Origin: a virus
Direction: 5' to 3' (one strand)
Length of the DNA stretch: 64,000 nucleotides
Virus record (IMG/VR): IMGVR_UViG_3300033442_000004
Location: 1-64,000 of that record
How positions within the stretch are numbered: position 1 is the first letter of the stretch; every line of letters starts with the position of its first letter. The position numbers were made by a program, and so were the translations under genes. Shown here in pieces: positions 7,866-40,268 of this stretch. The notes beneath the pieces are model-generated. The model saw only the letters and a program-made list of their open reading frames with translations. It was not told the DNA's origin and ran no database searches.

Positions 7866-8360
7866 TTACGCGGCCTCCTCGTTGCGCCGCTCATCGTTGT
7901 CGTTCGCGGCCTTGTAATTCGATTGCGCCCTGGCTTCCTTCAGCAGCTCGTCCAGATCGATGCCCGGGATGATGTGGCTCTGGATGGTTTCGAGAGCTGC
8001 GTCGAAGTAGGCCTTGAAGTCTTCCTCGCCCATCGCGTCGAACGCCGTGGAGGAGGGGATCATGATGATCTCGCCGGCCGTGGTCATGACCGGACGAACG
8101 ACGCCGTTGGCGAGCAGCAGCGTGTCGTGCAGCGACTCTTCGCTGGCGAACAGATCGGTGTTGTTGGTCACGATGCGCAGGATCACCCGGTACAGGCGAT
8201 GCCTGGGACCGCTCCGGGGCTGAGCGAACTGTGCCCGAACCGGCACGTTCTCCGGGATCGACTGGAACATTTCCACGTCGTACGCGGCGTGCGGGATCAG
8301 GTGGCCATCGACCTTGCGGACGAGGATCCACTTGCTCTTGGACTTGTTGCTCGCGCTCAT
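7866..8360 (-). CDS. NinB/DUF1367-like recombination-associated protein
   Basis: PRSGPRHRLY and IPSSTAFDAMGEEDFKAYF patterns; lies in the recombination cluster. Confidence 0.6.
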   Translation of the reverse strand: MSASNKSKSKWILVRKVDGHLIPHAAYDVEMFQSIPENVPVRAQFAQPRSGPRHRLYRVILRIVTNNTDLFASEESLHDTLLLANGVVRPVMTTAGEIIMIPSSTAFDAMGEEDFKAYFDAALETIQSHIIPGIDLDELLKEARAQSNYKAANDNDERRNEEAA

Positions 8361-8383
8361 GCGTTGGTTCTCTTCATGTCACC

Positions 8384-8653
8384 TCAGATCAGTGATCCCT
8401 GGCGGGACCGCTGGCTTGTGGATCTCGGTTTGGGTTGGGGTCTCGGCCTGTCGTCCCGCTGCAGCTGCTCGACCTTCACGCGGCATGCCTCGATGAGCGT
8501 TTCGATCTGCTCTTCGGTCAGGCCGTAATCCTCGCGGTGAGCCCGTTCATCGGCCCACCACTGACGAAGGGAGGAGGGCGGGCCCTCTGAGAGTGAGATC
8601 CCCCAGAGGGCCAGCTGCATGTAGGCCGCAGCCTTATCCGGCATGGGCCGCAC
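8384..8653 (-). CDS. Hypothetical phage protein
   Basis: 89-aa ORF overlapping the SSAP stop. Confidence 0.55.
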   Translation of the reverse strand: MRPMPDKAAAYMQLALWGISLSEGPPSSLRQWWADERAHREDYGLTEEQIETLIEACRVKVEQLQRDDRPRPQPKPRSTSQRSRQGSLI

Positions 8654-9359
8654 GCTTCAGCTCCTGCGACTTGTCGCTGAGCTTGCCCATGACGTAGGCC
8701 TCGCCGTTCGACGAGAGCTTCTTCATGTCTTCGATGAAGCCCTTGTCGGCGGCGATCTCCATCGCCTGCTTCGTGCGCTCGATGCCGGCGATCTTCTCGA
8801 CCCAGAACGTGACGATCTTCTTGCCTTCCTCCGCGGTGACGGAAGCCTCGCGGGCCGGGGCCTTGTCGTCGTTGGCCGCCGGCCGGCGCTCGTCACGCTG
8901 ATCGTCGCGGCGGTCGCTCGACCGGTTGTTGCCGGGGTCCTGGTTGAAGTCGTCGGCTTCCTCGGACGAGTAGGCGTCGCCGTGCAGGTCGGCCAGCTTC
9001 AGGATCACGCGATCCTTCGCCCGCTTCTCCGCCATGGCGTACGGATACGCCGCCATCTTGCCCTTGACCTTGTAGTTGCCGCCGACCTCATTCTCCTTCG
9101 AGATCAGGGCCTCGCCGATCGACCACTCGGTCTTGCCGTTTGCCTCGCCCATGACGAGGATGACGGCCTCGTCGCGCTCGGCACGCAGGATCTCGGGCTT
9201 CGTCCATTTGATGCCGATGGCGGCACCTAGGCGCTCGACGTCCTTGTGCTTGACGACGGGCGTTCCCTGGACTTCCCAGATCGAGTCGCGATCGATGTCG
9301 ACCTTATGCTTGTCGAAGACGTCGTAGATCTTGTCGAGCTTCGGGTTCTTTCGCGCCAT
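8634..9359 (-). CDS. Putative single-strand annealing protein (Rad52/Sak-like)
   Basis: YPYAMAEKRAKDRVILKL...YSSEEADDF motif; adjacent to YqaJ exonuclease. Confidence 0.6.
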   Translation of the reverse strand: MARKNPKLDKIYDVFDKHKVDIDRDSIWEVQGTPVVKHKDVERLGAAIGIKWTKPEILRAERDEAVILVMGEANGKTEWSIGEALISKENEVGGNYKVKGKMAAYPYAMAEKRAKDRVILKLADLHGDAYSSEEADDFNQDPGNNRSSDRRDDQRDERRPAANDDKAPAREASVTAEEGKKIVTFWVEKIAGIERTKQAMEIAADKGFIEDMKKLSSNGEAYVMGKLSDKSQELKRAAHAG

Positions 9360-9374
9360 GGTTTTCTCCTGTGA

Positions 9375-10331
9375 CTATGCGGCGTCTGCCGCGGGGGTGG
9401 GTTTGTCGTTGCTGTTGGCGGCCTTGCGGGAGCGGGTCGCCTTCGGTTTGGGCTCGGGCAGGGGACGGCCGGAGTCCTTGTCGGCCTGCTTGACCGCCTC
9501 CTTGTCGATCTTGACGAGCATCTTGCCGTCGCTCGAATAGGAGATCGTCACGCCCTTGCCGGACGCGATCTTGGCGTCCTGCGGCATCTTCTTCTTGATG
9601 TCCTTCTTCGCCTTCTCGTGCTCGTCGACGGCGGTCTTGGTCTCCACCATCTTCTGAGCCAGGTCGCACCACTCGTTGTCGCCGTTCATGTCGGCGATGC
9701 GAACTTTCTCGAGCAACGGAACCGAGATCGTCGGCGTGCCGGGCGTGCGGCCGGTCTGGACGCAATCCCAGAAGTCCTGCTCGGCCTGGAGCATCTTGGC
9801 CTGGTAGAAGATGTCGGCTTCGACCTCCATGACGACGTGCTGGGCGGCGCCGGTGATGATCGACAGATACGAGAGCGGCAGGTCCATCACCATCATGTTG
9901 TGCTGGCACTGCGCGTAGTACTTGTCGTAGGCCTTCTGCTTGTCGAAGCCGAAGGGCATCATGAACTTGAACTCGACCATCGCGATGACGGGAGCGTCGT
10001 CCGCCTTGCGAACGAGTCCGTCGAGGGTCGCGTGAGCCTTGTCCCAGTCCTTGTAGAAGACCTTGTCCTGCTCGTTGGTCACGGCCAGGTTCATCTGGAA
10101 CTCGAACCAGTCAGCGTTCAGCTGCTCGGTCGTGTTGCCCATCTGGACCAGCAGGATCTCGGACATGTCCTCCTGCTCCTGCTCGCCGCGCTTCTCGCGC
10201 CACAGACGCTCGATCTCCATCTGGTCGCCAGACATAATGATGCGCGCATCCGATCCACCGAGGGACGTCATGCGGGCAGCGCGGGCCTCATCGCTCATGC
10301 CGAGGTGGCGGGTACGACGTAGAAACTGCAT
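9375..10331 (-). CDS. YqaJ/lambda-exonuclease family protein
   Basis: R..SLGGSDA, HATLDG, VEFK, YYAQCQHNM motifs. Confidence 0.9.
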   Translation of the reverse strand: MQFLRRTRHLGMSDEARAARMTSLGGSDARIIMSGDQMEIERLWREKRGEQEQEDMSEILLVQMGNTTEQLNADWFEFQMNLAVTNEQDKVFYKDWDKAHATLDGLVRKADDAPVIAMVEFKFMMPFGFDKQKAYDKYYAQCQHNMMVMDLPLSYLSIITGAAQHVVMEVEADIFYQAKMLQAEQDFWDCVQTGRTPGTPTISVPLLEKVRIADMNGDNEWCDLAQKMVETKTAVDEHEKAKKDIKKKMPQDAKIASGKGVTISYSSDGKMLVKIDKEAVKQADKDSGRPLPEPKPKATRSRKAANSNDKPTPAADAA

Positions 10332-10345
10332 CTCACTTCTCCTGT

Positions 10346-11023
10346 TCAGCGGTATTCCCGCCAGATGGCTTTCTCGCCGAGGGTCTCGACGAAGGCCGCG
10401 TGCAGCCGCCGCTCCTCGTCGGTCAGCCTGGACGGCAGAGGAACGGGCCGCTGGCGCGCAGCGGGTAGGTTGTCGATGGTGACTTCTTCCTTCTCGCCGA
10501 GCAGCGAGAGGCCATATTGGCGGCCACCGCGCAGCTCGACGTAGACTTCGCTCAGCAGCTCGGCGTCGAGGAGGGCGCCGTGCAGCTTTCTCCTGCTGGT
10601 ATCGATGTTGAAGGCCGAGCAGAGACCGTCGAGGGTGTGACGGCCACGCGGACGCTTCGCCTTCGCCAGCTCCAGGGTGTCGACGATTTCGTTCTGGAGC
10701 GGCGGCATATCGAGCCGGTCCAGTTCGTCGTTGATCATCCCGAGATCGAAGGGAGCGTTGTGCGCCACCAGCCGCGCATCACCGATGAAGGCGAGGAACT
10801 GGTTGACCACCCGCTTGAACGTCGGCTTCGTCTTCAGAAACTCATTGCTGAGCCCATGGACGGCGAACGCCTCCCTGTGAACCGGATGCGTGGGGTTGAC
10901 GTACTTGTGGAACGTCTTCCCCGTCGGCAGCCAGTTGTTGATCTCGACGCAGCCGATTTCCACGATGCGGTCGACCTTGCGCTCGATGCCCGTGGTTTCG
11001 GTGTCGATGATGATCTCTCTCAA
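10346..11023 (-). CDS. dnaQ: DNA polymerase III epsilon-like 3'-5' exonuclease
   Basis: IIDTETTG, VAHNAPFD, HGALLDAELL (DEDDh); Q-Y-G-L-S-L clamp-binding-like motif. Confidence 0.95.
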   Translation of the reverse strand: MREIIIDTETTGIERKVDRIVEIGCVEINNWLPTGKTFHKYVNPTHPVHREAFAVHGLSNEFLKTKPTFKRVVNQFLAFIGDARLVAHNAPFDLGMINDELDRLDMPPLQNEIVDTLELAKAKRPRGRHTLDGLCSAFNIDTSRRKLHGALLDAELLSEVYVELRGGRQYGLSLLGEKEEVTIDNLPAARQRPVPLPSRLTDEERRLHAAFVETLGEKAIWREYR

Positions 11024-11259
11024 AACGATCTCCGGGTGATCGGGTCGATTCCGTCGTCACGAAGTTGGGCGAACACCTGGTCCCGCAGCCGATCGGCAAG
11101 CGTCTGCGACGAGTCCAGGAGGGCTGAGATCGACAGCTCCACCTGCTCGGGGGAGCCGACGATGAACGACGCCTCCAGCCGGCAGAGACATGCCTCGTGG
11201 ACACGTCTCGCCGCCTGAAACCTGAGGAAGGCGTCGGTGACCTCCGGGCTACGCGGCAT
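11020..11259 (-). CDS. Hypothetical phage protein
   Basis: MPRSPEVTDAF... 79-aa ORF overlapping neighbours. Confidence 0.55.
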   Translation of the reverse strand: MPRSPEVTDAFLRFQAARRVHEACLCRLEASFIVGSPEQVELSISALLDSSQTLADRLRDQVFAQLRDDGIDPITRRSF

Positions 11260-12196
11260 TGGTGGGCGCGTGGACGACTGGCAGGCCACGTCCGATGCTC
11301 GGGCGAGCGAGATCGGGGTGGTCCTGCATCCATTTCTGAACGAACCAGAGCTGACCGCAGCCGCCGCCGATCGTGTCCTGACCGGCCGGATCGAACACGC
11401 GGACGTCGTAGCCGCGCTCGACCAGCTTGAGGCTGAAGTCAGACGCCAGCTCGCGCTGGTGATCATTGGTCGCCGGCATGCCTTCGGAGCGCTCGCATAC
11501 GACGCTGACGGTCGCGTTCCAGACGTGCGGGTCGAACAGAGCGCGCAGGCGGTCCGCGTCCTCGATCGAGGAGTTGCCGTCGTGGGCGCAGTAGTTGAAG
11601 AACGGGTTGCGACCAGTGACCTCGTGCCAGACGGCGCCCTCGGCGGCGATCTGAGCCAGGGTCAGCTTCTTCTTGAACGGGACCAGGAAGTCCCGTGCAG
11701 CGTCGGTCGACTCGTGGACCGAGAACTGCAGGCCGATGGTCGGGATCTCCATCGAGATCTCGCGGACCACCTCGTAGTTGATGATCGGCGCCGAGGTCGA
11801 GATCAGGAGCGCTGCGTTGGGATACATCCGGTACAGCTGGCGCAGCGCCGGCACCAGACCCTTCAGGTTCAGCAGCGGTTCGCCCATCGACATGAACATG
11901 ATCTGCAGGCGCTTCATCTCGGACGCCTGGATGCCGGTCTGCTCGATCGAGTGCTCGACCTGGGCGATGATCTCGTCGGTCGACAGAGACCGCACGAAGT
12001 TGTCGCCGGCACCGCAGAAGCGGCAGCCTACCGGGCAGCCCGACTGAGTGGAGCAGCAGATCACGGAGCGGGTGGCATAGTCCGGGTACTTGTAGAGAAC
12101 GGCCTCCGCGACAGCAGTGCCGTTGTCGAACACGAACTTGGCGACGTTCTGCGCGGCGTCGTCGATCCGCTTTACGTTGGTCCAGGCAGGTCTCAC
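11249..12196 (-). CDS. RlmN/Cfr-family radical SAM RNA methyltransferase-like protein
   Basis: ICCSTQSGCPVGCRFC (CxxxCxxC), MSMGEPLLN, LQFSVH, GGGCGQL; GTG start overlaps the upstream stop. Confidence 0.85.
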   Translation of the reverse strand: MRPAWTNVKRIDDAAQNVAKFVFDNGTAVAEAVLYKYPDYATRSVICCSTQSGCPVGCRFCGAGDNFVRSLSTDEIIAQVEHSIEQTGIQASEMKRLQIMFMSMGEPLLNLKGLVPALRQLYRMYPNAALLISTSAPIINYEVVREISMEIPTIGLQFSVHESTDAARDFLVPFKKKLTLAQIAAEGAVWHEVTGRNPFFNYCAHDGNSSIEDADRLRALFDPHVWNATVSVVCERSEGMPATNDHQRELASDFSLKLVERGYDVRVFDPAGQDTIGGGCGQLWFVQKWMQDHPDLARPSIGRGLPVVHAPTNAA

Positions 12197-12780: not shown

Positions 12781-13111
12781 TCGCCACCGCGGCGTTGCCG
12801 TACATCTGCCGGCGTCGCGTTGCCCGGTACTCGTAGCAGCCGTAGTGGACACGCTTCTGCGAGAGCAGGATCTGCCCTTCGCCGGCATCCTTGTGGATGC
12901 GGTCAGCGATGATGTTGAGCTGCGCGATGTTCATGCGCTCGACGGTGCGCAGGACATCGGACTCCGGGATCTCGACCTGGCGGTCGATCTGGAGGTGACC
13001 GGTCCAGTAGACGAGGACGTCGCCGGCAGCCGCCTGCTTCAGCCAGTCGTAGTAGTCGGACAGGGCGCCCGGTGAGATGTCGAGAACTGTGGTTTCGGTG
13101 TCGGACATCAC
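12758..13111 (-). CDS. Hypothetical phage protein
   Basis: 117-aa ORF ending ANDQLVPA. Confidence 0.65.
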   Translation of the reverse strand: MMSDTETTVLDISPGALSDYYDWLKQAAAGDVLVYWTGHLQIDRQVEIPESDVLRTVERMNIAQLNIIADRIHKDAGEGQILLSQKRVHYGCYEYRATRRRQMYGNAAVANDQLVPA

Positions 13112-13500: not shown

Positions 13501-13538
13501 GGAACCTCGGTTTGCATTCAAGCAAATGGTGTGACGTG

Positions 13539-13614: not shown

Positions 13615-14226
13615 TTAGAACGGGATGTCATCATCCATGTTGTCGTTGCCGCGCGCCGGAGCGGAGGAGCGGCTGCCGTTGCCACCTCGGGTGCCGCCAC
13701 GGTCGTCGTTGCGGCCACCGCGATCATCGTCACGGTTGCGGCTCGACGAACCGCGGTCGTCACGACCACGATCATCGCGTCCGCGATCGTCACGGCTCGA
13801 CGAGCGTCCACCGCGATCGTCACGGTCATTGCCACGGTCGTCGTTGTCGCGGCTGCCACCGCCGCCGTTGCCGTCGCGCTCCCAGATCTTCTGGAAGGCC
13901 TCGGACTGCGCGAACTGTGGGACCACGATCTCGGTCGAGTAGCGGTCAGCGCCGCTCTGGTCCTGCCACTTGCGGGTCTGCAGCTTGCCTTCCAGGTAGA
14001 CCTGGTCGCCCTTGGCCAGGTTCTTGTCGATGAACTTGATGGTGTGCTCGTTGAAGACGACGACGTTGTGCCACTCCGTCTTCTCCTTCATCTCGCCGTC
14101 GCGCTTGTCCTTCCAGCGCTCCGACGTCGCGACGCTGAGGTTCGCGACCTCGTTGCCGTTCTGCATGCGGCGGATCTCGGGGTCCTTCCCGAGACGGCCC
14201 AGCAGGGTCACTTTGTTAACTGACAT
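13615..14226 (-). CDS. ssb: Single-stranded DNA-binding protein
   Basis: [34 protein letters not shown]-terminal DDDIPF. Confidence 0.97.
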
Positions 14227-15853: not shown

Positions 15854-16058
15854 TCTCGTAGCTGCTCCATGTGCAGTGATGACAGTTCCAAACCACGCCT
15901 GAGGCGTCGATCTTGACGCTCAGGCATTTGAGTTTCTTGTGAGCCCCCTTCCGCTTGTGGGAGCAGTTCGGGCAGATGGCGTACTGGGTGCCCATCTTCA
16001 GGGATCGGACCTTGATGCCGTTCTCCTGCAGCGCCTTCTCGACATCGACCCCGGCCAT
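15723..16058 (-). CDS. Primase zinc-binding domain encoded as a separate ORF
   Basis: CPNCSHKRK...KCLSV...WNCHHCTW matches the N-terminal zinc ribbon of Twinkle-like primases. Confidence 0.75.
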   Translation of the reverse strand: MAGVDVEKALQENGIKVRSLKMGTQYAICPNCSHKRKGAHKKLKCLSVKIDASGVVWNCHHCTWSSYENAKREARQRDRGQRPHQRNGGGYGDLQRASLARFAGQPRRSAG

Positions 16059-16894
16059 CAGATCGCCATCCCCGGGCGACCTCGCGGACGAGCTGGCGCG
16101 CTCTCGGTTTCCCAGCGCGCCTTGTTGAGCCAGACGCTGGCCGCCGCGATGAAGCGCTCGTTGTTCGGGTCGTCCTTGACCTGAGCGTTCATGCGTTCGG
16201 CGTAGTGACGGAGGCCGGCCATCAGGTCGATGAACTCGACCTCGTCATCGTTGTGGATCTTGTCGAGCTTGACCCAGGCGTCCTTCCGGCTGTCGCCGCG
16301 CTTCTTCGGGTAGAGCTTCCAGAATTGCTCCCGATAGTCCTCGGGCCAGGGCGCAGTCTTGCGCGCCTTCTTCCGGTTAGCTTTGGGTTCTCCTGATGGG
16401 TTCAGTGTGGGTTCATCTGATAGGTTAGGCGGCACGTCATGCCGGTGGTCACCGGCACCAGATTCCTCACCCAGCGGCACGTCGTTCCGGTCCCCACCGG
16501 AATCTGATGCCTCTGCCTGCGGCATTTCCTGCCGCGGCACGTCGTTCCGGTCCTTGTCGTTGTCGTTTGCTGCAGTTTTCCTGGCGCTACCACCGGAACG
16601 AGATGCCGGTGGTTCTTCCGACGAGCCAGCAGCGGGCTCAGTCATGTTCAGGTAGATCATGTCCGTGGTATCGCGGCGCTTGACGCGGCGGATCAGGTTC
16701 ATGTCTTCGAGGTCGGTCATAGCGTTGCGGACAGCGCGCACGCACGCCTCAACCTCGTCGGCGATCCGCTGCTGCGATGGCCAGCACGCACCATCGGCAT
16801 CGTTCGCTCTGTTGGCGATCGACATCAGCACTGCCTTGCGGAGCGTGCTGCCAGTCTTGATCTTTCTCGCCCAGGATTGCGCGTCGAAGCTCAT
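16058..16894 (-). CDS. Phage replication initiator (N-terminal HTH, lambda O-like organisation)
   Basis: KAVLMSIANRAN..GACWPSQQRIADE HTH; C-terminal FWKLYPKK...ASVWLNKARWE; internal iterons. Confidence 0.85.
   Translation of the reverse strand: MSFDAQSWARKIKTGSTLRKAVLMSIANRANDADGACWPSQQRIADEVEACVRAVRNAMTDLEDMNLIRRVKRRDTTDMIYLNMTEPAAGSSEEPPASRSGGSARKTAANDNDKDRNDVPRQEMPQAEASDSGGDRNDVPLGEESGAGDHRHDVPPNLSDEPTLNPSGEPKANRKKARKTAPWPEDYREQFWKLYPKKRGDSRKDAWVKLDKIHNDDEVEFIDLMAGLRHYAERMNAQVKDDPNNERFIAAASVWLNKARWETESAPARPRGRPGMAI
16405..16608. repeat. Iteron array / putative replication origin inside the initiator gene
   Basis: CGG(C/A)A-N5-T(G/T)CC(G/T) units at 16430, 16453, 16475, 16498, 16520, 16535 and 16594 (22-23 bp period, one abutting pair). 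Confidence 0.8.
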
Positions 16895-18600: not shown

Positions 18601-19002
18601 TCAGCCCCCGCCCTCGACATCGAATGTCTTCTCGATAGCTGCGACCAGAGCATCAATGCGTGGCACCGATGCCGTCAGGTCGTAGATGTCAAGGCCGTTC
18701 CGAAGTTCCGTCAGTCGCTTGAGCCAGGCCTCGTCGTTTGCGACCTTCTGGACGTTGACGATGCTCTCCCACTTTTCCTGGTTGATGGAGAGCGTCACCT
18801 TCTCGATCTCGAAGTCCAGGAAGTCGATGAACTCCTTGATCGGGATCGCGACCTTGTCCATTGCCGGCTCGATGATCAGCATCTGCTGACATATCTCCTC
18901 CAGCATTCCGTGGAGGCGGCTCTGGAATCGAGCGTTGATCGGCTGCGGTCGCACAGCCGGCTCGACAGTCCTAGTTTGCTTTTTGCCCATTTGCTGGAGC
19001 AC
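18601..19002 (-). CDS. Hypothetical protein
   Basis: 133-aa ORF convergent on the repressor, with a GC hairpin at about 18590-18613 between them. Confidence 0.6.
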   Translation of the reverse strand: MLQQMGKKQTRTVEPAVRPQPINARFQSRLHGMLEEICQQMLIIEPAMDKVAIPIKEFIDFLDFEIEKVTLSINQEKWESIVNVQKVANDEAWLKRLTELRNGLDIYDLTASVPRIDALVAAIEKTFDVEGGG

Positions 19003-23091: not shown

Positions 23092-23128
23092 GATGCTTCC
23101 TTGATAGAAAGGGGCGAAGTGGCGGCCC

Positions 23129-24712
23129 TTAGGCCGCCTTTGTCGCTGCTACGGTTTGCTTGTTGTCGTTGGCCGGCGGCACCTTCACCTTCGGCAACGG
23201 CGGATAGAGATCGATCAGCTCTTCCATGGCGCGGGTGGCTGCCACGTACTGCAGATTGACCTCCTGCTCCTTCTCCCAGGGCATGCTGGCGTACTTCGAT
23301 GGGCAGGTGTTCAGCCGATCGAGCCAGTAGACGCGCTTCCATTCCCGGCCTTTCGACCGGTGGATGGTGCAGAGGGTGAGGATGCCCTTCACGTCGTCGG
23401 CGAAGATGTTGTCGATGTAGGCCGTGACCGCGGCGATCGAGTCCTGCTTGTCGTCGCGGCATGCATCCATGACGACCTTCAGCGTCTTAACCTTGTCCTC
23501 GGCCTCCTGGACCTTCGACATCTTCTTCTTCGGCAGCCAGCGCTCCTTCTCCTTCTCCAGCCAGTCCTCCAGCTTGTCCTCCAGCTCCGGGATGGTGCTG
23601 ATCGACTTCCAGCGGGTGGCCAGCTTCTTGAGCGAGTTGCCGATGTCCCGGCCTTCGATGCGGCAGGGGATCTTCTCGCGGATCAGGGCGAACGCGGCAG
23701 TCACTAGCGGCCGGGTGTTGCGGCAGATGATCGCCGCATCGCCGTTCAGCCGATCGCGGACGGTGATCATCTTCTCGAACGTCTCGGAGCTGATCTTGCC
23801 CTCGGGCGCCGAGGGGTGAGCCTCGATGTGGTTCACCCAGGTCTGAGCGAACTTCACCACGTTCTTCGGGCAACGATAGGTGACCGTGAGCGGCATCACC
23901 TTGGCGCCGAACTCCTGCTGGATGATGTCGAGGCTGTCGTTGTCGGCGCCCGTGAAGCCGAAGATAGCCTGGTGAGGATCTCCGACAGCGATGACGCGGC
24001 CGATACCGGGCTTCATCAGCGCCTTCACCAGCAGTCGGCGGACCGTGTTGGTGTCCTGCGCCTCATCGATCCAGACATTCTCGAACTGCCAGAACTTGAT
24101 CTTGTAGAGCAGGGGCAGGTAGATCATGTCGTTGAAGTCGATGACGTCCGGGTTCTTGTTCGACTCCTTGAGCAGCAGGATCGCCAGGTCGATGATGTCC
24201 GATGCCTTCTTCTGCAGAGGCTCTTCGTCGAACAGGTCGAAGTGCTCGGCGATATCCTCCCAGATCGAGGTATCGTCGATGTGGCCCTGGCCCTCGATGC
24301 CGAGGCCGCTCTGCTTGGCGAAGGCGACGAGCTGACAGGCGACCGAGACGTGAGGAACGAGCGAAGGCTCGATCTTGGCGTTTTCCACCCAGTCAGCGCT
24401 GATGCGTCCGACCTTCTCGTCGTCGATACGGACCTTCGGGAACGTCTTGCGGTAGTTGCGCAGGGCGATGGCGTGACAGGTCGAGGACTCGGCCTTCTTC
24501 CAGTCGATGCCGAGCTGCTCCAGCTTGCCCTTCATCTCCTTGGAGATCTTGGCGCCGAATGACAGGATGATGCTGCTGCCGCGCATCTCGCCGACCGTGC
24601 GGACGATGGTGGTCGATTTGCCGGCGCCGGCCACTGCCATCACGATGATCGAGCCGGTGCCGTTCCAGGCTTCTTGCTGGACAGCCGCTTGCTGCGGGGA
24701 GGGGACGTACAT
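23129..24712 (-). CDS. UvrD/Rep SF1 helicase
   Basis: AVAGAGKST, IDEAQD, VGDPHQAIFGFTGA, TYRCP, TIHRSKGREW, YVAATRA. Confidence 0.95.
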   Translation of the reverse strand: MYVPSPQQAAVQQEAWNGTGSIIVMAVAGAGKSTTIVRTVGEMRGSSIILSFGAKISKEMKGKLEQLGIDWKKAESSTCHAIALRNYRKTFPKVRIDDEKVGRISADWVENAKIEPSLVPHVSVACQLVAFAKQSGLGIEGQGHIDDTSIWEDIAEHFDLFDEEPLQKKASDIIDLAILLLKESNKNPDVIDFNDMIYLPLLYKIKFWQFENVWIDEAQDTNTVRRLLVKALMKPGIGRVIAVGDPHQAIFGFTGADNDSLDIIQQEFGAKVMPLTVTYRCPKNVVKFAQTWVNHIEAHPSAPEGKISSETFEKMITVRDRLNGDAAIICRNTRPLVTAAFALIREKIPCRIEGRDIGNSLKKLATRWKSISTIPELEDKLEDWLEKEKERWLPKKKMSKVQEAEDKVKTLKVVMDACRDDKQDSIAAVTAYIDNIFADDVKGILTLCTIHRSKGREWKRVYWLDRLNTCPSKYASMPWEKEQEVNLQYVAATRAMEELIDLYPPLPKVKVPPANDNKQTVAATKAA

Positions 24713-24793: not shown

Positions 24794-25096
24794 TCACCGC
24801 TTCTTGCGGGGCTTCCTCGTGCGGGACAGTTCCCGAGCCTTCCGGATCAGGGCGTAGAGAGCCGATGCATCGCTGCACAGGCGTTCGTCGTCGAGATCGG
24901 CCATGATGTCTTCGGCGTGCTCGGCGTTCCGCGCCTTGTCGGTCGGCGTGTCCATCCTGGAGAGCTGGGAGAGGATCTCGCAGGCGCCTTCGACGAACTT
25001 GCGAGCCCGATCGTGCTTGGCGTCGTAGCCGCGGCCATCGATCGATGCGTCCAGGCCGTCGAGGTAGGTGGTGATCATCGGGTGGAGAGCCATCAC
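24794..25096 (-). CDS. Hypothetical phage protein
   Basis: 100-aa ORF. Confidence 0.55.
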   Translation of the reverse strand: MMALHPMITTYLDGLDASIDGRGYDAKHDRARKFVEGACEILSQLSRMDTPTDKARNAEHAEDIMADLDDERLCSDASALYALIRKARELSRTRKPRKKR

Positions 25097-25464
25097 GCAG
25101 CCTCCTTGCCGGCATCGACTTCCGCGACGCGCAGCTCCTTCAGGCCCTCGACGACGCGCGTCGCATCCACCTCGTTGTAGACCTTGCAGATGTATCGCTT
25201 GTCGTCGAAGATCAGCCAGCCTTCACCGTGGAAGTTCGACATCTTGAAGGTGCGCGGATTTTCCCGCCAGAACACGGCCTTGACCTCGGCGGTCAGATGG
25301 CGCGGCTGGATCGATCCGTAGGCGTGCTGGTCGATCAGGTTCTTGGCCTTCAGGCTGTTGAGCGAGTTGACCTCGCCCTCGCGGAGCCAGACGTAGTTGG
25401 TGGCATGGAGCGTCAGCACCTTGGCGACGATCTGCTCCTGCAGCTTGGTAAGGGTCTTAGGCAT
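25093..25464 (-). CDS. Hypothetical phage protein
   Basis: 123-aa ORF ending KEAA. Confidence 0.6.
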   Translation of the reverse strand: MPKTLTKLQEQIVAKVLTLHATNYVWLREGEVNSLNSLKAKNLIDQHAYGSIQPRHLTAEVKAVFWRENPRTFKMSNFHGEGWLIFDDKRYICKVYNEVDATRVVEGLKELRVAEVDAGKEAA

Positions 25465-26804: not shown

Positions 26805-29030
26805 TCAGGCTGCTTCCGCCAGCGGGTCGATCTCGTCGTCGACCGGCTCGGCGTTCTGGTTGTTGTCGTTCAGCGCCAGCGCAGCCCTCGCCATTTCCGC
26901 CTGCTGTTGCAGGAGCTGCTGCTCTGCATGCAGGAGGTCACAGTAGTGCTTGAGCTGGCGCTGGGTTTGGGCAGCGTCCGTGCGGTTCGAGTACGAGTAG
27001 TACGGGTTCGGCTCGATGATCAGCTTGAGCAGCGCGTACTTCGAGCACAGCTCGCGGTAGCGCCGTTCCATCGCCGTGATCGGGCACTGCACCTCCGGCT
27101 TGTCGATTTCGATACCGAGCCGGGACAGGGCGGAGTGCGCCTTGTCGGTCGGGGTATCGACGGTCGAGTTGCCCCGGAGAGCGGTGCCGAGCGCCGTCAG
27201 CTCGGTCTTGAACAGCAGCAGGTCGCCCGGCGCATTAGCGAACGTCGCCGGCGTCATGCCGACGATGCCCCTCAGAGCCGAGTCGAGATCGTTGAAGGAC
27301 TTCTGGTGCAGTCCGGTGAACGTCGAGACGTCGATCTTGGCCTGCAGATCGGGGATCAGGTCATCTCCGAACAGCGTCCAGTTGTCGCCGAGCGCAGCGT
27401 GATCCTCGCTCTGGATCAGGATCGTGGTGCCTTCCTCGACCAGACCCAGCTCGAAGGAGGCCGAGATGACTTCCTTCATCACGCTGAGCGAGACGCTGTT
27501 CTGCTCGGTCGAGACCTTGACGTACTCGTTACCGCGGCGCCGGCTGTAGAGGCCGTTGCTGACGCGCTGCAGGTAGAAGCCGCCCTCGGCCAGGTCGACG
27601 TCCTCCTGCGACACGAGGACGCCACCACCCTCGGTGACCACCATCACCCTGCGGCGACGGACGGTCTTGCCACGGGTCCGCTTGCTCGCCGGCACCTTGA
27701 AGGTGTCCAGCTCGACGACCTCGGGATCGCCGAGGGCATTGAGCACTTCCTCGCGGAAGGCCCGCTTGCAGCGGATCCAGAGCACTTTCTGGCCGACCAA
27801 CTGCGCCATCTGGAAGCGCGAGTAGGAGTAGCTGGGGTTGTGCTCGATGACGATTTTGGCGTCGCGGCACCAGCTCATCCGGACCGTGGTGTCTTCGAAC
27901 TTGTCGAAGTGAACCCAGCCATCGGCCAGCATCCCGGTCTTGCAGTTGATCTTCGGAACGGTCGACGACAGCGTCTTGCCGCGCCACTTCACAACCTCCC
28001 GCAGCTTCTCGGTGCGAGAGACGCCGAGAGACTGGGTTGCTTCCTCGAACAGCTCGACGGCACCGATCAGGTCTTCAGCCGTGTCGACGGCGGTCTGACA
28101 GTTTCGGATGAAGTTCTGCTCATACTCCTCGGTCAAGCGAGCCAGGGTCGCCTTGGTGTTGTCGTCATAGGCCAGCTCTTCGCGGGACAGCGTCACCTTG
28201 AGCGAGCCGATCGGGGCATCGAACAGGACGGCATCGCTGTAGTCGAGGAAGCCCGTCGTCTTGATCTGCCGCATGTCGAAGGGGTACATCACGCAACCCA
28301 TGCGGACGTGCGGACCGTTGAACGGCACCGTCCCGTTCTTGTAACGGGTGTAGTTGTCGCCCTGGCTCGTGACGACCGGGTCCTTCCAGTCGATCGCCGG
28401 GGTGATCTTCGGCCGCGGAGTGAACGACCAGAGGATGCTGCGAGCCCGATCATGGAACTCGCGGATGTCTTCGCGGCGAACCGGGAAAGACACCTCCAGG
28501 CCGGTCGGCTCGTCCGACGGCGCCTCGATCAGCAGGCGCATGGTCGGCGCACCGCTCTGGGACAGCGAGAGCACGTAGGTCCGCATCATGCCGCCGTGGT
28601 AGGACGTCACTGTGTAGGAGCCGGAGCCCGAGTCCGAGATCAGGTAGGCGTATGGGCTCTTCGAACCCAGGCCCCAGCCGCCGACCTGGTCGTTGCTGCC
28701 GCGCTTCGTCGAAGCGTAGAGGCGGGCATAGACGTTCTTCATGTCGTCGGGCGACATGCCGGGACCGAAGTCACGGAACGTGATCGTCGGCGAGAGCGGC
28801 GTCGGCAGCCGGATCTGCGGGATCTTGTCTTCAGGGATGTCGTCGCCGTACTTGAGGCGCGAGCCATCCCACATGTTCGTCGTCAGCTCGCGGATCGGGT
28901 AGCCGATCTTGTCCTTCGCCAGACCTGAGATCTGGGCGTAGAACGCCACCGCGTTGGCTTCGAACGAGATGGCGACTTCATCCTGCACGCCAGCTGCGAC
29001 GTCGACATGTTCTTGCAATCCGAGTTTCAT
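26805..29030 (-). CDS. rIIA: rIIA-like protein (GHKL/Hsp90-type ATPase N-domain)
   Basis: IRELTTNMWD, RDFGPGMS, STKRGSNDQVGGWGLGSKSPYAY, TGLEV, MGCVMYP, SREELAY. Confidence 0.85.
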   Translation of the reverse strand: MKLGLQEHVDVAAGVQDEVAISFEANAVAFYAQISGLAKDKIGYPIRELTTNMWDGSRLKYGDDIPEDKIPQIRLPTPLSPTITFRDFGPGMSPDDMKNVYARLYASTKRGSNDQVGGWGLGSKSPYAYLISDSGSGSYTVTSYHGGMMRTYVLSLSQSGAPTMRLLIEAPSDEPTGLEVSFPVRREDIREFHDRARSILWSFTPRPKITPAIDWKDPVVTSQGDNYTRYKNGTVPFNGPHVRMGCVMYPFDMRQIKTTGFLDYSDAVLFDAPIGSLKVTLSREELAYDDNTKATLARLTEEYEQNFIRNCQTAVDTAEDLIGAVELFEEATQSLGVSRTEKLREVVKWRGKTLSSTVPKINCKTGMLADGWVHFDKFEDTTVRMSWCRDAKIVIEHNPSYSYSRFQMAQLVGQKVLWIRCKRAFREEVLNALGDPEVVELDTFKVPASKRTRGKTVRRRRVMVVTEGGGVLVSQEDVDLAEGGFYLQRVSNGLYSRRRGNEYVKVSTEQNSVSLSVMKEVISASFELGLVEEGTTILIQSEDHAALGDNWTLFGDDLIPDLQAKIDVSTFTGLHQKSFNDLDSALRGIVGMTPATFANAPGDLLLFKTELTALGTALRGNSTVDTPTDKAHSALSRLGIEIDKPEVQCPITAMERRYRELCSKYALLKLIIEPNPYYSYSNRTDAAQTQRQLKHYCDLLHAEQQLLQQQAEMARAALALNDNNQNAEPVDDEIDPLAEAA

Positions 29031-33662: not shown

Positions 33663-33854
33663 TCATCTCGCGCAGCTCCAGCGGTTCGGGCAGCCGATCT
33701 CCCAGTTGCCGCACTGCTCGCACGTCCCACCGCGACCGCAGCTGTAAGTGCTGGTCACCTGTGTGCAGACGAGGCGAGGCAAGGGGAGATTGCTGTTGCC
33801 TTCGTCGCAGCCGGCGAGCAGCAACGCGGCGATAAGGATGATGGATCGCTTCAT
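33663..33854 (-). CDS. Small Cys-rich lipoprotein-like protein
   Basis: MKRSIILIAALLLAGC lipobox. Confidence 0.55.
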   Translation of the reverse strand: MKRSIILIAALLLAGCDEGNSNLPLPRLVCTQVTSTYSCGRGGTCEQCGNWEIGCPNRWSCAR

Positions 33855-34228
33855 GCGGCGAACCCCAGCTCGTGGCGATAGCGCTGAGGCTTCGGCGCCT
33901 CGTACCAGAAGGCGATGCGCGGCGGCTCTTCGTAGACCGCGATGACGGTCGGCGCCCGACCCATCTTCTTGGTGTACCAGCTGGCCGATTTGCGGAGTGT
34001 CCGGCCGCTCTCGCGGGCAGTGTCGATCAGCAGCAGCTCGAACTTGTCCGGGACATTGGCGCCGAACGGGATGAACGGGATGCCGAGGATGTGGGAGGCG
34101 TAAACCGCGGCGACAGCGCCGGATCGGCCGGGGCCGGTGACGCAGCCGACATGCTCAACCCGCTGGTTGAAGAGGACGGTTCTGATGCGCTGAGCGAACT
34201 CGGCTTCGGAGACGATGCGGATGGTCAT
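33851..34228 (-). CDS. Phosphoribosyltransferase-like protein
   Basis: TGPGRSGAVAA and LLLIDTARESGRTL (degenerate PRPP loop). Confidence 0.6.
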   Translation of the reverse strand: MTIRIVSEAEFAQRIRTVLFNQRVEHVGCVTGPGRSGAVAAVYASHILGIPFIPFGANVPDKFELLLIDTARESGRTLRKSASWYTKKMGRAPTVIAVYEEPPRIAFWYEAPKPQRYRHELGFAA

Positions 34229-35602: not shown

Positions 35603-35770
35603 TTGCAGTTCTCCTTTGGTGGTTGCGGCCGACTGGTTGAGGTCACCCCGTCAGTGACGGCGGCCCGCGCTTGGATTGACGGGGTGTTTCGCTGCGCGCC
35701 TATAGACCGACGTTTGCATTCATCGCAAGTGCAAATTTGCATTGAAGCAAACGATTAGGTATAGGGAGGC

Positions 35771-36223
35771 ATGCAGAAAACTGAATTGGTCTATGGGTTA
35801 CCTTGGCTCCAAACGAAGCCGGAACGCGCTATCTTCGATGAACTTCGGTTCGCGTGCGTCTATGCAGCCGGCCCCCTCGGGGGGCGGCCGCTACGGCTCG
35901 GCGCCTCGACCAACCTCAAGAAGCGGATTGAGTGCCTGCAGCCCGGCAACTGGGAGCCGCTGAAGATCCATCATGCGATCTGGACCACGAACGAGGCGTT
36001 CGCCGTCAGGATCTTCAACGATGCCGCCGCACTGTTCGACAAGGCCAACCGACGCCTGGTCGGCGACTGGTTCGACGTGACGCCGGAGTTCGCCGTCCAG
36101 GCTATCCGCCTGGCTGGTGAGAAGGCGAACATCCCGATGCTCTCCCACGATGGCCTGCTGGAAAAGGTCAGAGCCATCCGGGAGGGGCGTCTGAACAACG
36201 GCATCGTCGTCAGCAAGCGATAG
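35771..36223 (+). CDS. GIY-YIG/T5orf172-like protein
   Basis: VYAAG..LRLGASTNLKKRIECLQPGNWEPL...GDWF. Confidence 0.65.
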   Translation: MQKTELVYGLPWLQTKPERAIFDELRFACVYAAGPLGGRPLRLGASTNLKKRIECLQPGNWEPLKIHHAIWTTNEAFAVRIFNDAAALFDKANRRLVGDWFDVTPEFAVQAIRLAGEKANIPMLSHDGLLEKVRAIREGRLNNGIVVSKR

Positions 36224-36494
36224 GGTAGGCAGGTCGTCGCTGTTCGCTACAAACACAGAGCGTTTCCCTTTTCCGTCCGCCTTGCCATCCGCTACGATGG
36301 CCCAATCGGACCTGCCCTGCGGGACTCGAACCCGCCTAACTCAATTCGGCTCGATGTGATGCGCTTGATCACGCGTCCGTCGTTGATCCAGCGGTTGATG
36401 TCGTCCCCCAGGTTGACGCTGTCGGAGTATTCGGGAATTATCACCTTGACTGAACAGTCTGGAAACGGGATATTGGCCTCAAGGAGATTGGCCA

Positions 36495-37430
36495 ATGCCC
36501 GCGACGGTTGGTCTGACAAACCCGATTTTCACGGACCTCGAAGCGGCCCGGCAGCACTTTGAAGCCATTCGCTGGCCTGAGGGTACCTATTGCCCGTTTT
36601 GCGGCTCGTTTGATCGCGTTGCGGCGCTTGGTGGCAAGTCGATGGGGCCGGGCTGGTATCACTGCAAAGACTGCCGCAAGAAATTCACTGCGGCTGTCGG
36701 CACGATCTATGAGCGCTCGCATATTCCAATGACGAAATGGCTTCTGGCGACGCACCTGATGTGCGCGAGCAAGAAGGGCATGAGCGCGCATCAGCTTCAT
36801 CGCATGATCGATCTTCCCTATAAGACGGCGTGGTTCATGGCACGCCGCATTCGCGAAGGCATGCGCGACCTAAGTCCCGCCCCGACGCCAATGGGCGGCG
36901 CTGGCGAGACGGTTGAGGCCGACGAAACGTATATCGGCGGCAAGGAGAAGAATAAGCACCGCAGCAAGCGCAATGGCGCGAATATCGGCGGCATGGGCAA
37001 AGAGATTGCGTTCGCGCTCGTTGAGCGCGGTGGACGCGTTCGCACGGAGCATGTTGCGAATGTGACTGCTAAGACGCTGCGCGATACGCTGGTAACGCAG
37101 CTCCATGCCGACACTAAGTTGATGACGGACGACGCCGGGCAATATCGCCACATGCACAAGGATTTTGCGCATGAGGTTGTCAATCACGGCATTGGCGAAT
37201 ACATGCGCGGCGAAGCGCATACGAACACGGTCGAAGGTTACTTCTCGATCCTGAAACGCGGCATCACTGGCACCTACCATCACGTCAGCGCGCAGCGCTT
37301 GAAGCGTTATCTTGCCGAATTTGACTTCCGCTACAATGAGCGGTCTGGCCTTAGCGTGACTGGCGCGGAACGCGCAACCAAGGCGGTCAGGGGTGTTGTT
37401 GGAAAGCGGGTGACGTATTTACCGATCTAG
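36495..37430 (+). CDS. IS1595-family (ISXO2-like) DDE transposase
   Basis: CPFCG..CKDC zinc ribbon, VEADETYIGG, LMTDD, HTNTVEGYFSILKRG, YLAEFDFRYN. Confidence 0.95.
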   Translation: MPATVGLTNPIFTDLEAARQHFEAIRWPEGTYCPFCGSFDRVAALGGKSMGPGWYHCKDCRKKFTAAVGTIYERSHIPMTKWLLATHLMCASKKGMSAHQLHRMIDLPYKTAWFMARRIREGMRDLSPAPTPMGGAGETVEADETYIGGKEKNKHRSKRNGANIGGMGKEIAFALVERGGRVRTEHVANVTAKTLRDTLVTQLHADTKLMTDDAGQYRHMHKDFAHEVVNHGIGEYMRGEAHTNTVEGYFSILKRGITGTYHHVSAQRLKRYLAEFDFRYNERSGLSVTGAERATKAVRGVVGKRVTYLPI

Positions 37431-37634
37431 ACTAATGTCAGACAGAACGAAGTTTCGTTCTAGGTCTCACGGCGCGCGCGGCCCTTACCAGCAACGCCAC
37501 GCGGAGCAGCTTTCCTTTTCTTTTGAGGACGATCGGGAATAGGCGAGGCCTTCGGCTGCGGCGAGGTGTTCGCCATTCGGCATATTACCTCGTCGCGCCT
37601 CCGAGCAGCTTCGCCATCGCTGTATGAATCGTCG

Positions 37635-39335
37635 TCATTTGGATTTTTTGGCACTTCGATGCCTCCTATCCCACTGAGCGTTCAATTTTTTCAGAAGCAA
37701 CGGGCCGCGAGCAACTGAGTCAGCATCTGAATCCTGGCTAAGCTTCTTGTAAAACTTTGAAACGTTACGCAGAACAGATAGCAGCAATTCATCCTTGAGC
37801 TGGTCGCCCTTTGGAAGCTTGGCAGCGGGCGGCAGCTTGACGCCAGTGAACTCACGGGTTGCTATAGCAGCCACGTAAAAGAGCAAATTTTTAATATCGC
37901 TCTTCTCAACTCCTCGATTAGCCAAGAACTTTTCGACTCGTCGCACGATCCGAACGCATGCCAAGTAGGTTGGCAGCGGGATTTTTGAGTTGTCAAAGAT
38001 CGAAGTGTATCTCTTTTCGTCCTTGAAGTAATCGCCGGGACGTGCGCGTGCATCATCGGGGCGTTGCAACATTATCGATATCGTGCCCTGTGCGACGGCA
38101 TTCACGGAAATTATCGTTTTGATGGGCTGTCCCTGATCTTTGTAAAATCCCTTCCTGCGATCGTAGAAAAGCCCTTCGCCCTTGAATAGCTGCTCAATAT
38201 CTCGATGAATTTGATCCGTCATCCTCAGGGAGGCGGGCTGCATTTTATTCTGACTATTTGTGGCCTTGATAATCAAGTCCTGAGTTTTCTGGTCGGTTGT
38301 TTCGATCACCCTCACTAAAACTGTTCTGTTATCTGTTGTGCCAGATTCGATGGTGTCAAAGATGACTCGCGAGGTCTGCAACCCGTTCACAATTTGAGGA
38401 TCGGAGACTGTCAGCATTAGATGCGCCGGCGCCGCCTTTGCGGCGATGATGGTCACACCGTTGTTCAGAAGCCAAAAATTCGGCTCGTCTCCAGTATTCT
38501 TCAGTGACCCCGCCATCTCATCGTTGATGGTCGAGTCCAACACGAAACCTCGCACGTTGGATTCAAAAATACGCTCAGCCAAGACAGCCGGATCATCATC
38601 TTCGACAAGAAATGCACGGTAGTCATGCAATTTCACCAGCCCCACATAGCCTTCTTTGGTCATCATGGGCGGTTCAGCCCAATTGATGATCCTGTGGCTT
38701 AGTGGTCTCTTTTGAACCTGCTCCCATAGCTGTTTTGCGCCAACACAATGAACCTTGCAGGTCGATTTGAGTGCCTTTTCGACCCGGTGCTTTACTCGGT
38801 CGCAGGCATCTGCGGCATATGCGTCAGGTGCCGCATCGTCACCAGTTATGTAGAAAAAATCGGCGGTGACTACAGGAAACTGGCCTGACAGCTTCAGATA
38901 CTGATCGCGCCAGACGCGCATGGCGGTCTTGATCCGCTTATTGTACCTGTCTCCAAAGTTATTTGGGTCAACCGAAAGATCGAAGAAATCGTCAACGGTC
39001 TGCAGCCATTTCTCCATCTCGGTTGGTTTCATACCCCCACTGGTCTTGACTTGGAAAAAGAGCAAATGGATCGACGCGACTAGCTTCGGATCAAGTAGGG
39101 TGTTGGCGTCAACAACCTGTCGGTTATTTGCTAGGAAATAATATCCATCAACGCCGCCGTCGCCGCCACCCTCAGTAATGCCAGCCTCAAGGTCTTCGTC
39201 GTCAATGGCATACGACTTCAAATGCTGTTCAAGGCAATAGTACAGCCAAGGGTCAATATCTGGATCAAGACCAGCGGCGCGGGCTTTCCAGCCCTCAAAA
39301 TTTGCCTTAAGTACAATCGCATCGTTCAGTGCCAT
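37635..39335 (-). CDS. AIPR (abortive infection phage resistance) family protein
   Basis: GDGGVDG, IFESNVRGF, FWLLNNGVTII, QIVNGLQTS, ATNSQN motifs; lower GC than flanks. Confidence 0.88.
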   Translation of the reverse strand: MALNDAIVLKANFEGWKARAAGLDPDIDPWLYYCLEQHLKSYAIDDEDLEAGITEGGGDGGVDGYYFLANNRQVVDANTLLDPKLVASIHLLFFQVKTSGGMKPTEMEKWLQTVDDFFDLSVDPNNFGDRYNKRIKTAMRVWRDQYLKLSGQFPVVTADFFYITGDDAAPDAYAADACDRVKHRVEKALKSTCKVHCVGAKQLWEQVQKRPLSHRIINWAEPPMMTKEGYVGLVKLHDYRAFLVEDDDPAVLAERIFESNVRGFVLDSTINDEMAGSLKNTGDEPNFWLLNNGVTIIAAKAAPAHLMLTVSDPQIVNGLQTSRVIFDTIESGTTDNRTVLVRVIETTDQKTQDLIIKATNSQNKMQPASLRMTDQIHRDIEQLFKGEGLFYDRRKGFYKDQGQPIKTIISVNAVAQGTISIMLQRPDDARARPGDYFKDEKRYTSIFDNSKIPLPTYLACVRIVRRVEKFLANRGVEKSDIKNLLFYVAAIATREFTGVKLPPAAKLPKGDQLKDELLLSVLRNVSKFYKKLSQDSDADSVARGPLLLKKLNAQWDRRHRSAKKSK

Positions 39336-39523
39336 AAAGTTTCCTCCCCCGGTTGAGGGGAGTGTAATCCGTCGGTCGTGTGCAGTCAAAGTGATAACTC
39401 CCCACTGTCTCGCAGTGCCGCAGCATCCAGAGTTTATCGGTGACCCGGATCAGCTTGGTGTAGGTCGCCGAAACGACCTCCACTCGAAACTCGATCCCGG
39501 CTAAGGTGATGATGCTTCCGTGC

Positions 39524-40074
39524 TCAGGCTGCGGAGGCATTGGACAGATGCTCGGCGATTGCTTGCTCGCCGTCCGCGACCACCTTGTAAGCGTCCATCC
39601 AGATCGGGAAGCAGACGCGGTGGGCCAATGTCAGCCGGTCGAGCAGCGCCTTCTTCTCCGGCACGTAGACCATGGCGAAATTGATGTCGTGCTCGACGAT
39701 GCTCGGCACGTTGTCGATCATGTCGGCGCACTTGATCATCTGAGCGCGCCAGGAAGCGCCTGCCAGGTATTGCAGGTCGAGGCGCTTGCGCATCGGCCGC
39801 TTGCCGTGGATCGGTCGGCTGACGTTGGACACTTCGAGCACGAGATCGGCGATCTCCTCGCCGAACTCGCCGACGAGCGCCTTGTGGGACGTGTCCGCGT
39901 CCTCGATCGTGTCGTGCAGCCAACCGGCGGCGATGGTGGCGTATCGGCGGCGTTGCTGTTCAGGTTCTTGGCGACGCGCTCCAGGTGCCGCCAGTAGGGC
40001 TCCGTCACGTAGTTGCGCATCTGAGCGCCGTGGGCGTTGATCGCAAAGTTCTTGGCTCTTGTCAGCAGGCCCAT
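39524..40074 (-). pseudogene. HD-domain (RelA/SpoT hydrolase-like) gene with frameshift
   Basis: AINAHGAQMRNYVTEPYWRHLERV in one frame; AAGWLHDTIED...IKCADMIDN in another; switch near 39940. Confidence 0.8.
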
Positions 40075-40268
40075 CAGGCGGCTTCCTCATTGTCGTTGCA
40101 GGGCCGACTCACGATCGGGAGTAGGCCAAGCGTGTGAATATCGAGAGTGATCGGCTCCACCCAGGTGAAGCCGGCGCGGTCCCGATGCGTGTGGTTGAAG
40201 GTGACGGTTTGGACGACGACCGTGCCGAACGGCAAGCGCTTGCCCGGGGGCAGACCAATGGCGAACAT
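40074..40268 (-). CDS. Hypothetical phage protein
   Basis: 64 aa, ends CNDNEEAA. Confidence 0.5.
   Translation of the reverse strand: MFAIGLPPGKRLPFGTVVVQTVTFNHTHRDRAGFTWVEPITLDIHTLGLLPIVSRPCNDNEEAA

Follow-up and report, generated by a model that had tools for sequence, protein, structure and literature searches.

The window, i.e., the stretch of DNA analysed here, covers the initial 64 kb of virus record IMGVR_UViG_3300033442_000004, which consists of one contig of 120,772 bp. Several proteins of this virus end in a peptide that copies, in the gene itself, the two conserved elements of the tag which the transfer-messenger RNA (tmRNA, encoded by ssrA) of its host adds to proteins, namely an (A)NDN head and an Ala-Ala carboxyl terminus. 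A sequence-only reading of the window had remarked on this likeness, and it proves to be a non-random, conserved, protein-level copy of both elements at approximately their native spacing. Mimicry of the tag, and selection for this mimicry, are well supported. As to function, we regard the tails, with a little more confidence than doubt, as genetically encoded mimics of the host tag that would act as degrons for the SspB/ClpXP system.

IMG/VR classes the record as a provirus and CheckV assigns it a completeness of 100 %. Among named phages, Bradyrhizobium phage BDU-MI-1 comes nearest to it; the viral helicase has relatives on contigs from two genomes of Bradyrhizobium (G001 and G002), and 12 contigs, the largest of 9.5 Mb, hold a protein identical to the NinB-like one. 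Judged by these sequence relationships, the virus is a Bradyrhizobium prophage. Gene calling over the 120.8 kb used an in-house codon-bias caller instead of a standard program and gave 187 genes, 112 of them wholly inside the window; errors in the choice of start codon are immaterial to what follows because C-termini are set by stop codons alone. Orthologues were compared among four genomes, i.e., this phage, BDU-MI-1 and the prophage contigs of G001 and G002, with 89–106 orthologues common to this phage and each relative at a median protein identity of about 60 %.

Tails on proteins of recombination and replication

The NinB/Orf-like recombination mediator (164 residues; 7866..8360, minus strand; PHROG phrog_319 match over residues 13-152) ends AANDNDERRNEEAA, the tail being encoded at 7869-7910 and followed by the stop codon at 7866-7868. 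Its AlphaFold2 model has a confident core, with a mean predicted local distance difference test (pLDDT) score of 83.7, and the residues that score below 50 are 153-164, exactly the tail. All four genomes have this tail, with differing spacer residues. In the wider family, an insertion of 12 residues with the form AANDN(D/E)ER... is found in 26 of 80 members, in 19 of these 26 with the head placed 12 residues from the end, and 49 of the 54 short forms end in AA, mostly as KEAA.

The UvrD/Rep-type helicase (527 residues; 23129..24712, minus strand) ends PANDNKQTVAATKAA; its tail, ANDNKQTVAATKAA, is encoded at 23132-23173, and the Pfam UvrD-helicase/UvrD_C match stops at residue 500. Among the 120 homologues listed, N[DE]N lies within the last 30 residues of 41 of the 45 closest and of none of the 75 more distant ones. 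Counted from its first Asn, the head of these 41 is most often 12 (21 proteins) or 11 residues (10 proteins) from the C-terminus, and they end in AA (30), VA (10) or PA (1). A tandem pair of heads is present in five of the 45 closest homologues. A separate observation concerns the 3' end of the helicase gene (~23119-23140), where the last two Ala codons, the stop codon and the following bases form, by eye, an inverted repeat (GGCGGCC, a 4-base loop, GGCCGCC) that could possibly fold into a small RNA hairpin.

The YqaJ-type exonuclease (318 residues; 9375..10331, minus strand; Pfam YqaJ match over residues 19-148) ends AANSNDKPTPAADAA, with the tail ANSNDKPTPAADAA encoded at 9378-9419. Its head in this phage is NSN, not NDN; the orthologues end ANSNEKPADTEAA, DNDNNEEAEAA and DNDNTEEAEAAA, and within the family the closest representatives carry NDN...AA or NTN...AA while distant ones are without the tail. 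The rIIA-like protein (741 residues; 26805..29030, minus strand; PHROG phrog_612 RIIA) ends LNDNNQNAEPVDDEIDPLAEAA, encoded at 26808-26873. Its BDU-MI-1 orthologue retains ANDN...DEAA and those of the two Bradyrhizobium prophages only an acidic tail ending DEAA, so that across the four genomes NDN is present in two and the acidic ...DEAA end in all. A protein of 64 residues without a Pfam match (40074..40268, minus strand) has the tail CNDNEEAA (encoded at 40077-40100), and its orthologues end ANDNQKAA, NNDNERVA and DNDNERVA. The sixth such tail, FNDNQPAIVEAAA, lies outside the window on an MT-A70 methyltransferase (genome 113402-114031), whose profile match stops at residue 193 of 209; here NDN is found in this phage only and the AA end in all four genomes.

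Two further proteins carry the head without a C-terminal AA. In the single-stranded DNA-binding protein (SSB, 203 residues; 13615..14226, minus strand; Pfam SSB) NDN stands just before the acidic tip, and the orthologues have RNADMDDDIPF or RNNDMDDDIPF instead. The HTH_36 protein (278 residues; 16058..16894, minus strand) has an internal AANDNDKDRN (residues 108-117), a peptide nearly identical to the head of the NinB tail.

The six tails are thus read in frame within phage genes and precede ordinary stop codons, i.e., they are not added by tmRNA. AA stands directly before the stop in all of them, and orthologues end in AA or VA. The head is NDN in five tails and NSN in YqaJ, the full ANDN being confined to NinB and UvrD, and it lies 12 residues from the end in NinB and MT-A70 and 13 in UvrD and YqaJ. 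NinB, YqaJ, the helicase and the 64-residue protein have N(D/S)N together with AA or VA in all four genomes although their spacers have diverged. Judged by the comparisons within the helicase, NinB and YqaJ families, the tail has been appended to a number of unrelated folds within a single phage lineage, and its two anchors are constant, as is the distance between them.

All six tails quoted in the sequence-only reading, together with its nine bare AA ends, were found at their stop codons in the sequence and the gene calls; they include the end of ORF 12758, ANDQLVPA. That reading had gone further and suggested a possible genome-wide degradation programme via SspB/ClpXP, with graded degrons or saturation of these host factors as putative outcomes. 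‘Genome-wide’ is an overstatement, since the complete mimic is present on only five of the 187 proteins, or six when the NSN tail of YqaJ is counted.

Chance, host background and spread

The tripeptide NDN occurs 9 times in the 35,023 residues of the phage proteins (3.1 expected) and AND[NDE] 7 times (1.46 expected). As a null for the tails, the last 25 residues of each of the 187 proteins were shuffled in 1000 rounds. NDN falls inside this segment in 7 proteins, compared with a shuffle mean of 0.51, and is combined with an AA end in 5, compared with 0.01; in neither case did any of the 1000 shuffles reach the observed count. All seven tail NDN are outside the plus-strand structural block, which has none in its 64 genes.

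The host background was measured in two ways. A pattern search at the DNA level for NDN-x(2-12)-AA-stop covered the phage and 15.2 Mb of host sequence (G001, 7.1 Mb; G002, 8.1 Mb). It returned four matches in the 120 kb of the phage, all of them true gene ends, and 15 in the host (five in G001 and ten in G002). Two of the host matches are the tmRNA tag itself and five are on the related-prophage contigs, in the NinB, YqaJ and helicase orthologues; the others are out of frame (three), end in TGG instead of a stop codon (one) or lie in open frames of 14–36 codons (four). No ordinary host gene in these 15.2 Mb therefore ends in NDN-x(2-12)-AA. Secondly, in a host sample consisting of one 800-kb stretch of one contig (G001:C2:100001-900000, 712 called genes), NDN is found within the last 25 residues of a single protein, which is without an AA end. 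The outcome that the sequence-only reading had named as its refutation, no enrichment over host proteins, was thus not obtained for NDN...AA. A 29-codon open frame on the host chromosome (G002:C1:544714-544746, minus strand) ends PPANDNQDKSAAA and may be what is left of a prophage gene.

Bare AA ends, which the sequence-only reading had also listed, behave differently. They are found on 19 of the 187 genes (14 of the 112 wholly in the window), compared with 2.8 expected from the internal dipeptide frequency. In the host sample, 145 of the 712 proteins (20 %) end in Ala and 44 (6.2 %) in AA, the internal AA dipeptide frequency being 1.95 %; the phage value of 10.2 % is only 1.7-fold higher and near this background (p=0.075), and pooling with BDU-MI-1 gives 45/409 (p=0.006). 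Since host proteins themselves so often end in A or AA, claims about AA ends in high-GC genomes need such a host background. What does stand is the conservation of the dipeptide among orthologues: AA is kept in 12/14, 10/14 and 10/14 orthologue pairs with the three relatives, while in genes not ending in AA the last dipeptide is identical in 25/86, 21/69 and 22/69 pairs (29–32 %). At positions -3 to -8 the AA genes are less conserved (0.26–0.29) than the others (0.40–0.41).

Individual genes of this class illustrate both retention and loss. The HD-domain phosphohydrolase (188 residues; 39524..40090, minus strand) has AA in four of four genomes with differing -3 residues and gene spacing, and 21 of 30 wider homologues also end in AA after varied -3 residues. 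AA is likewise kept in four of four genomes in a 123-residue protein ending GKEAA (25093..25464, minus strand), where the end of the coding sequence overlaps the following gene's ribosome-binding site, and these four include two genomes in which the next gene is 68–69 nt away. A 146-residue protein ending QAVAA (7425..7865, minus strand) keeps it in three of four genomes, and a 125-residue protein ending GFAA (33851..34228, minus strand) in the three that have an orthologue. Orthologues of ORFs 26302, 19409 and 6033 have lost AA, and no orthologue of ORFs 11249 and 50255 was found in the three relatives. In the major capsid protein the last residues are KLAA in two of the four genomes, and KLGS in the remaining two.

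These data bear on the reading in which the tails are a functionless by-product, GC-rich codon drift supplying the Ala ends, Shine-Dalgarno and stop-start overlaps the E-A-A, and chance the NDN. Part of the excess of terminal Ala is indeed mechanical: many xA ends are GCA-TGA start-stop overlaps, 8 of the 19 AA genes overlap or directly adjoin the gene that follows, and GAGGAGG-GCC-GCG-TAA-ATG at the end of NinB is an instance of the textbook arrangement GAGGAGG-GCN-GCN-TAA-ATG. The host frequencies given above and the marginal difference in AA ends between phage and host point the same way. However, of 118 pairwise comparisons of Ala codons 56 show a different third position, and genomes differ in how far away the following gene lies, so that selection acts on the protein and not on a ribosome-binding site; with 11 of the 19 AA genes uncoupled from their neighbours, overlap with a ribosome-binding site or start codon was discarded as the main cause of AA. 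The by-product reading also leaves NDN unexplained, given the shuffles and its absence from host genes, and it does not account for a fixed head spacing or for the AA ends of the wider HD-domain homologues. We consider it very improbable overall, and for the NDN...AA tails it is largely refuted. Recent capture of host ssrA DNA was rejected as the source of the tails, as their DNA resembles the tag coding sequence of the host only at the NDN codons (by eye).

No NDN-type tail was found in the early regions of helicase-sharing phages of Brevundimonas, Dinoroseobacter and Sphingomonas (53, 69 and 44 genes, respectively), nor in 36 genes of a control, Pseudomonas phage JG054. The tails are thus not a general property of alphaproteobacterial phages, and within this small sample the motif is restricted to a lineage. 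In the first 50,000 of the 60,195 bases of Rhizobium phage 16-3, however, NDN occurs 13 times (0.9 expected), 12 of these being ANDN (0.11 expected), so that the motif recurs in an unrelated temperate rhizobial phage; its portal protein ends ANDNQEDEAEAA and its repair exonuclease AANDNVPASERRVA. In addition, (A)NDNF, with which the host tag begins, is found at the N-terminus of an orthologous pair, as TDVANDNFTQ... in BDU-MI-1 (L001, 32785-33198) and MNDNFTQ... on the G001 contig (G001:C10, 56191-56697 of the joined stretch).

The host tag, its reader and the proposed fate of tailed proteins

The sequence-only reading had taken the Caulobacter tag as its reference. This needs correction, the relevant peptide being the Bradyrhizobium tag, ANDNFAPVAQAA, which ARAGORN finds in both Bradyrhizobium genomes with related prophages. 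When 28 alphaproteobacterial tmRNA loci were given to the same program, 24 tags were obtained; 20 start ANDN and one ANSN, all end in AA, and the middle is variable. The distance from NDN to the end is 9–12 residues across these tags and 11 in the host tag. At -3 the native tags have L (10), V (7) or A (3); in the rest this residue is Q, I, M or R, and none of the 24 has E, K or D there.

In both G001 and G002 the sspB gene lies close to ssrA, ~300 bases away (G001:C2 ~1083.0-1084.1 kb and G002:C2 ~644.8-645.9 kb), and the SspB that it encodes is homologous to proteins of solved alpha-type structures (2qas, 2qaz, 2nys). Neither an SspB nor a tmRNA was found encoded by the phage, in which ARAGORN identifies only tRNA-Trp and tRNA-Asn. 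How such tags are read has been described elsewhere. In one study, an encoded Caulobacter ssrA tag causes fast decay of a fusion protein, and deletion of sspB slows this decay (PMC9393093). Another attributes recognition of the last three residues of the tag to ClpX and of its N-terminal part to SspB, and reports that decay becomes SspB-dependent when the ClpX part is weakened (PMC3064785).

The phage tails share with the native alphaproteobacterial tag the (A)NDN head, the Ala-Ala-COOH end and a variable middle, and the distance between head and end is alike (11 in the host, 9–12 in the class, 11–13 in most phage tails). They differ in being encoded by genes instead of added by trans-translation, in the charged residue at -3, in the frequent replacement of the Ala before NDN, and in the spacings of 7 and 21 found in two of them. 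Because both elements of the tag are copied in their proper order and at native spacing, on disordered tails and at the very C-terminus, a shared mode of reading by ClpX and SspB is the simplest explanation, and this is the degron reading that we favour. The head, like the part of the tag read by SspB, would be bound by the host SspB-alpha, which would tether the phage protein to ClpX; ClpX would then engage the AA end, and ClpXP would degrade, or at least unfold, the protein. In this way Orf/NinB, the YqaJ exonuclease, the UvrD-type helicase, rIIA, the methyltransferase and the small ORF product may acquire a short lifetime set by the proteolytic capacity of the host. The charged residue at -3 (E, K or D) would weaken direct binding to ClpX and make decay dependent on the adaptor, as in tags of the DAS type. 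Profile matches that stop short of the tail in UvrD, MT-A70 and NinB, and the disorder of the tail in NinB, the one protein folded, are consistent with an accessible segment of the kind such a degron needs.

A number of features weigh against this view. The spacing is non-native in the 64-residue protein (7) and in rIIA (21). The residue at -3 of the NDN tails is E, K, D or A instead of the hydrophobic or neutral type of native tags. Many tails have V, L, F, C or D in place of the Ala that precedes NDN, leaving NDN alone invariant, and VA takes the place of AA in 17 of the 26 NinB long forms and 10 of the 41 helicases. SSB and the HTH_36 linker have NDN without a C-terminal AA, and ANDN is mostly internal in phage 16-3. 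In NinB and ORF 25093 the E-A-A end overlaps the Shine-Dalgarno sequence of the next gene. Finally, NDN is a putative contact of SspB-alpha, assigned from conservation of the tag.

Some of these same features would be expected if NDN...AA were an unrelated docking motif for a phage hub protein or for another host factor, its likeness to the tag being convergent or coincidental. Only three residues of the head are invariant, the tag Ala preceding them is often lost, and in this phage NDN precedes the acidic tip of SSB. On the other hand, the motif matches both elements of the tag, in order, at the extreme C-terminus and in spacing; among host genes the NDN...AA end is found only in the tmRNA gene itself, and in the unrelated phage 16-3 the motif recurs with its Ala included in 12 of 13 NDN. 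We judge a docking motif of this sort to be improbable.

The heads that stand without AA hint that the head may also act alone; the examples of SSB, HTH_36 and phage 16-3 therefore keep two other readings alive. In the first, abundant early proteins with heads would occupy SspB/ClpXP in trans and, while the phage grows, slow the removal of tmRNA-tagged or other ClpXP substrates. A decoy of this kind could draw on several headed proteins at once, would tolerate heads that are internal or lack AA (among them the many ANDN of phage 16-3), and could make use of the tandem heads seen in some close helicase homologues. Nevertheless, the tight spacing between head and terminus and the conserved AA are what a substrate needs, and not what a pure SspB binder needs, so that we hold a decoy function to be rather improbable.

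In the second and broader reading, temperate rhizobial phages would use the host reader of tmRNA tags as a control hub, combining timed removal or remodelling of their own proteins with competition against the products of trans-translation. Many early proteins would then carry ANDN in a tail or a linker, by which SspB would tether them to ClpX, and the AA end at native spacing would be added where needed. We rate this as unlikely, though worth keeping in mind, as phage development would, if it were true, become a read-out of the free ClpXP/SspB capacity of the host, perhaps also in the choice between lysis and lysogeny or in the clean-up after abortive induction.

ClpX can also act without destroying its target, as in the disassembly of the MuA transpososome. 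The tails could by analogy bring in ClpX, with SspB as a helper, so that stable nucleoprotein complexes of recombination and replication are unfolded or taken apart. The tailed proteins are oligomeric DNA-bound machines (exonuclease, Orf/NinB, helicase, methyltransferase) and the charged -3 residue suggests weak engagement, both of which suit remodelling. However, these sequence features fit plain degradation equally well and nothing speaks for remodelling specifically, which makes it, in our estimate, quite improbable.

Neighbouring genes, known systems and significance

Other features of the phage genome deserve mention. An IS1595-family transposase (36495-37430, plus strand) adjoins a 566-residue AIPR (abortive-infection) protein (37635-39335, minus strand), and third-position GC is low in both (0.69 and 0.56, respectively, vs ~0.85 elsewhere); the AIPR gene is probably an acquired defence gene carried on the prophage. 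In a Pfam scan, the C-terminal part of a 1243-residue protein (53642-57373, minus strand; low third-position GC, 0.65) matches Peptidase_C48 (Ulp1-type) over residues 1113-1217. Outside the window, five large genes at genome positions 105087-112156 (338, 491, 324, 499 and 542 residues; third-position GC 0.62–0.64) are probably foreign DNA, and the last of them ends RRQEAA. The two tRNA genes, tRNA-Trp(CCA) at 66648-66720 and tRNA-Asn(GTT) at 77408-77483, are likewise outside the window, and the annotation of BDU-MI-1 also has a tRNA-Asn. As to the putative names ‘second MazG’ and ‘HNH’, which the sequence-only reading gave to proteins with internal AND(N/D/E), the ORFs at 5498-5941, 6266-6706 and 18601-18882 have no match to a Pfam family.

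Phage proteins of DNA transactions whose terminal peptide is recognised by a host unfoldase are exemplified by MuA, through its C-terminus, and by lambda O. Those signals are single ClpX motifs on single proteins, whereas here copies of the tag with an adaptor head are found on several. The mycobacteriophages provide a closer parallel. According to PMC9635641, two proteins of their integration-dependent immunity, integrase and viral repressor, have ssrA-like tags at the C-terminus. As in the present case, phage-encoded ssrA-like tags in this system (BPs, cluster P) deliver proteins to host proteolysis such as ClpXP. However, the mycobacteriophage tags belong to Int and Rep, and Rep loses its tag upon integration, while those described here are on enzymes of recombination and replication and have an adaptor-type head. 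No such head plays a part in the mycobacteriophages, as mycobacterial genomes are described in PMC3064785 as being without an SspB homologue. The integrase of the present phage is untagged; the only Phage_integrase match (genome 119570-120142, within the gene at 119480-120772) belongs to a protein ending ...GDKLWAS.

The engineered DAS+4 tag combines an intact SspB-binding head with a weakened ClpX end and extra spacing, which renders decay adaptor-dependent (PMC3064785). The phage tails resemble it in their E/K/D-A-A ends and in one or two extra spacer residues. DAS+4, however, is synthetic and derived from the E. coli tag, while the phage tails retain AA and their dependence on SspB is a prediction. 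In a literature search whose coverage left out most subscription journals, no paper turned up that deals with ANDN in phage proteins or with their mimicry of the tmRNA tag. Already known, then, are ssrA-like tags on a phage integrase and repressor; what the literature searched does not describe is a set of recombination and replication proteins that bear both head and end.

If the tails work as degrons, phages would set the lifetimes of their early enzymes via an adaptor of host quality control, and the tails would be natural examples of the adaptor-dependent ‘weak’ degrons that have been engineered as DAS tags. They would also supply tunable degradation tags for Bradyrhizobium and other Alphaproteobacteria. 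Moreover, the tag mimic is a signature of the host class, and hosts of prophages and of phages from metagenomes might be identified with its help.

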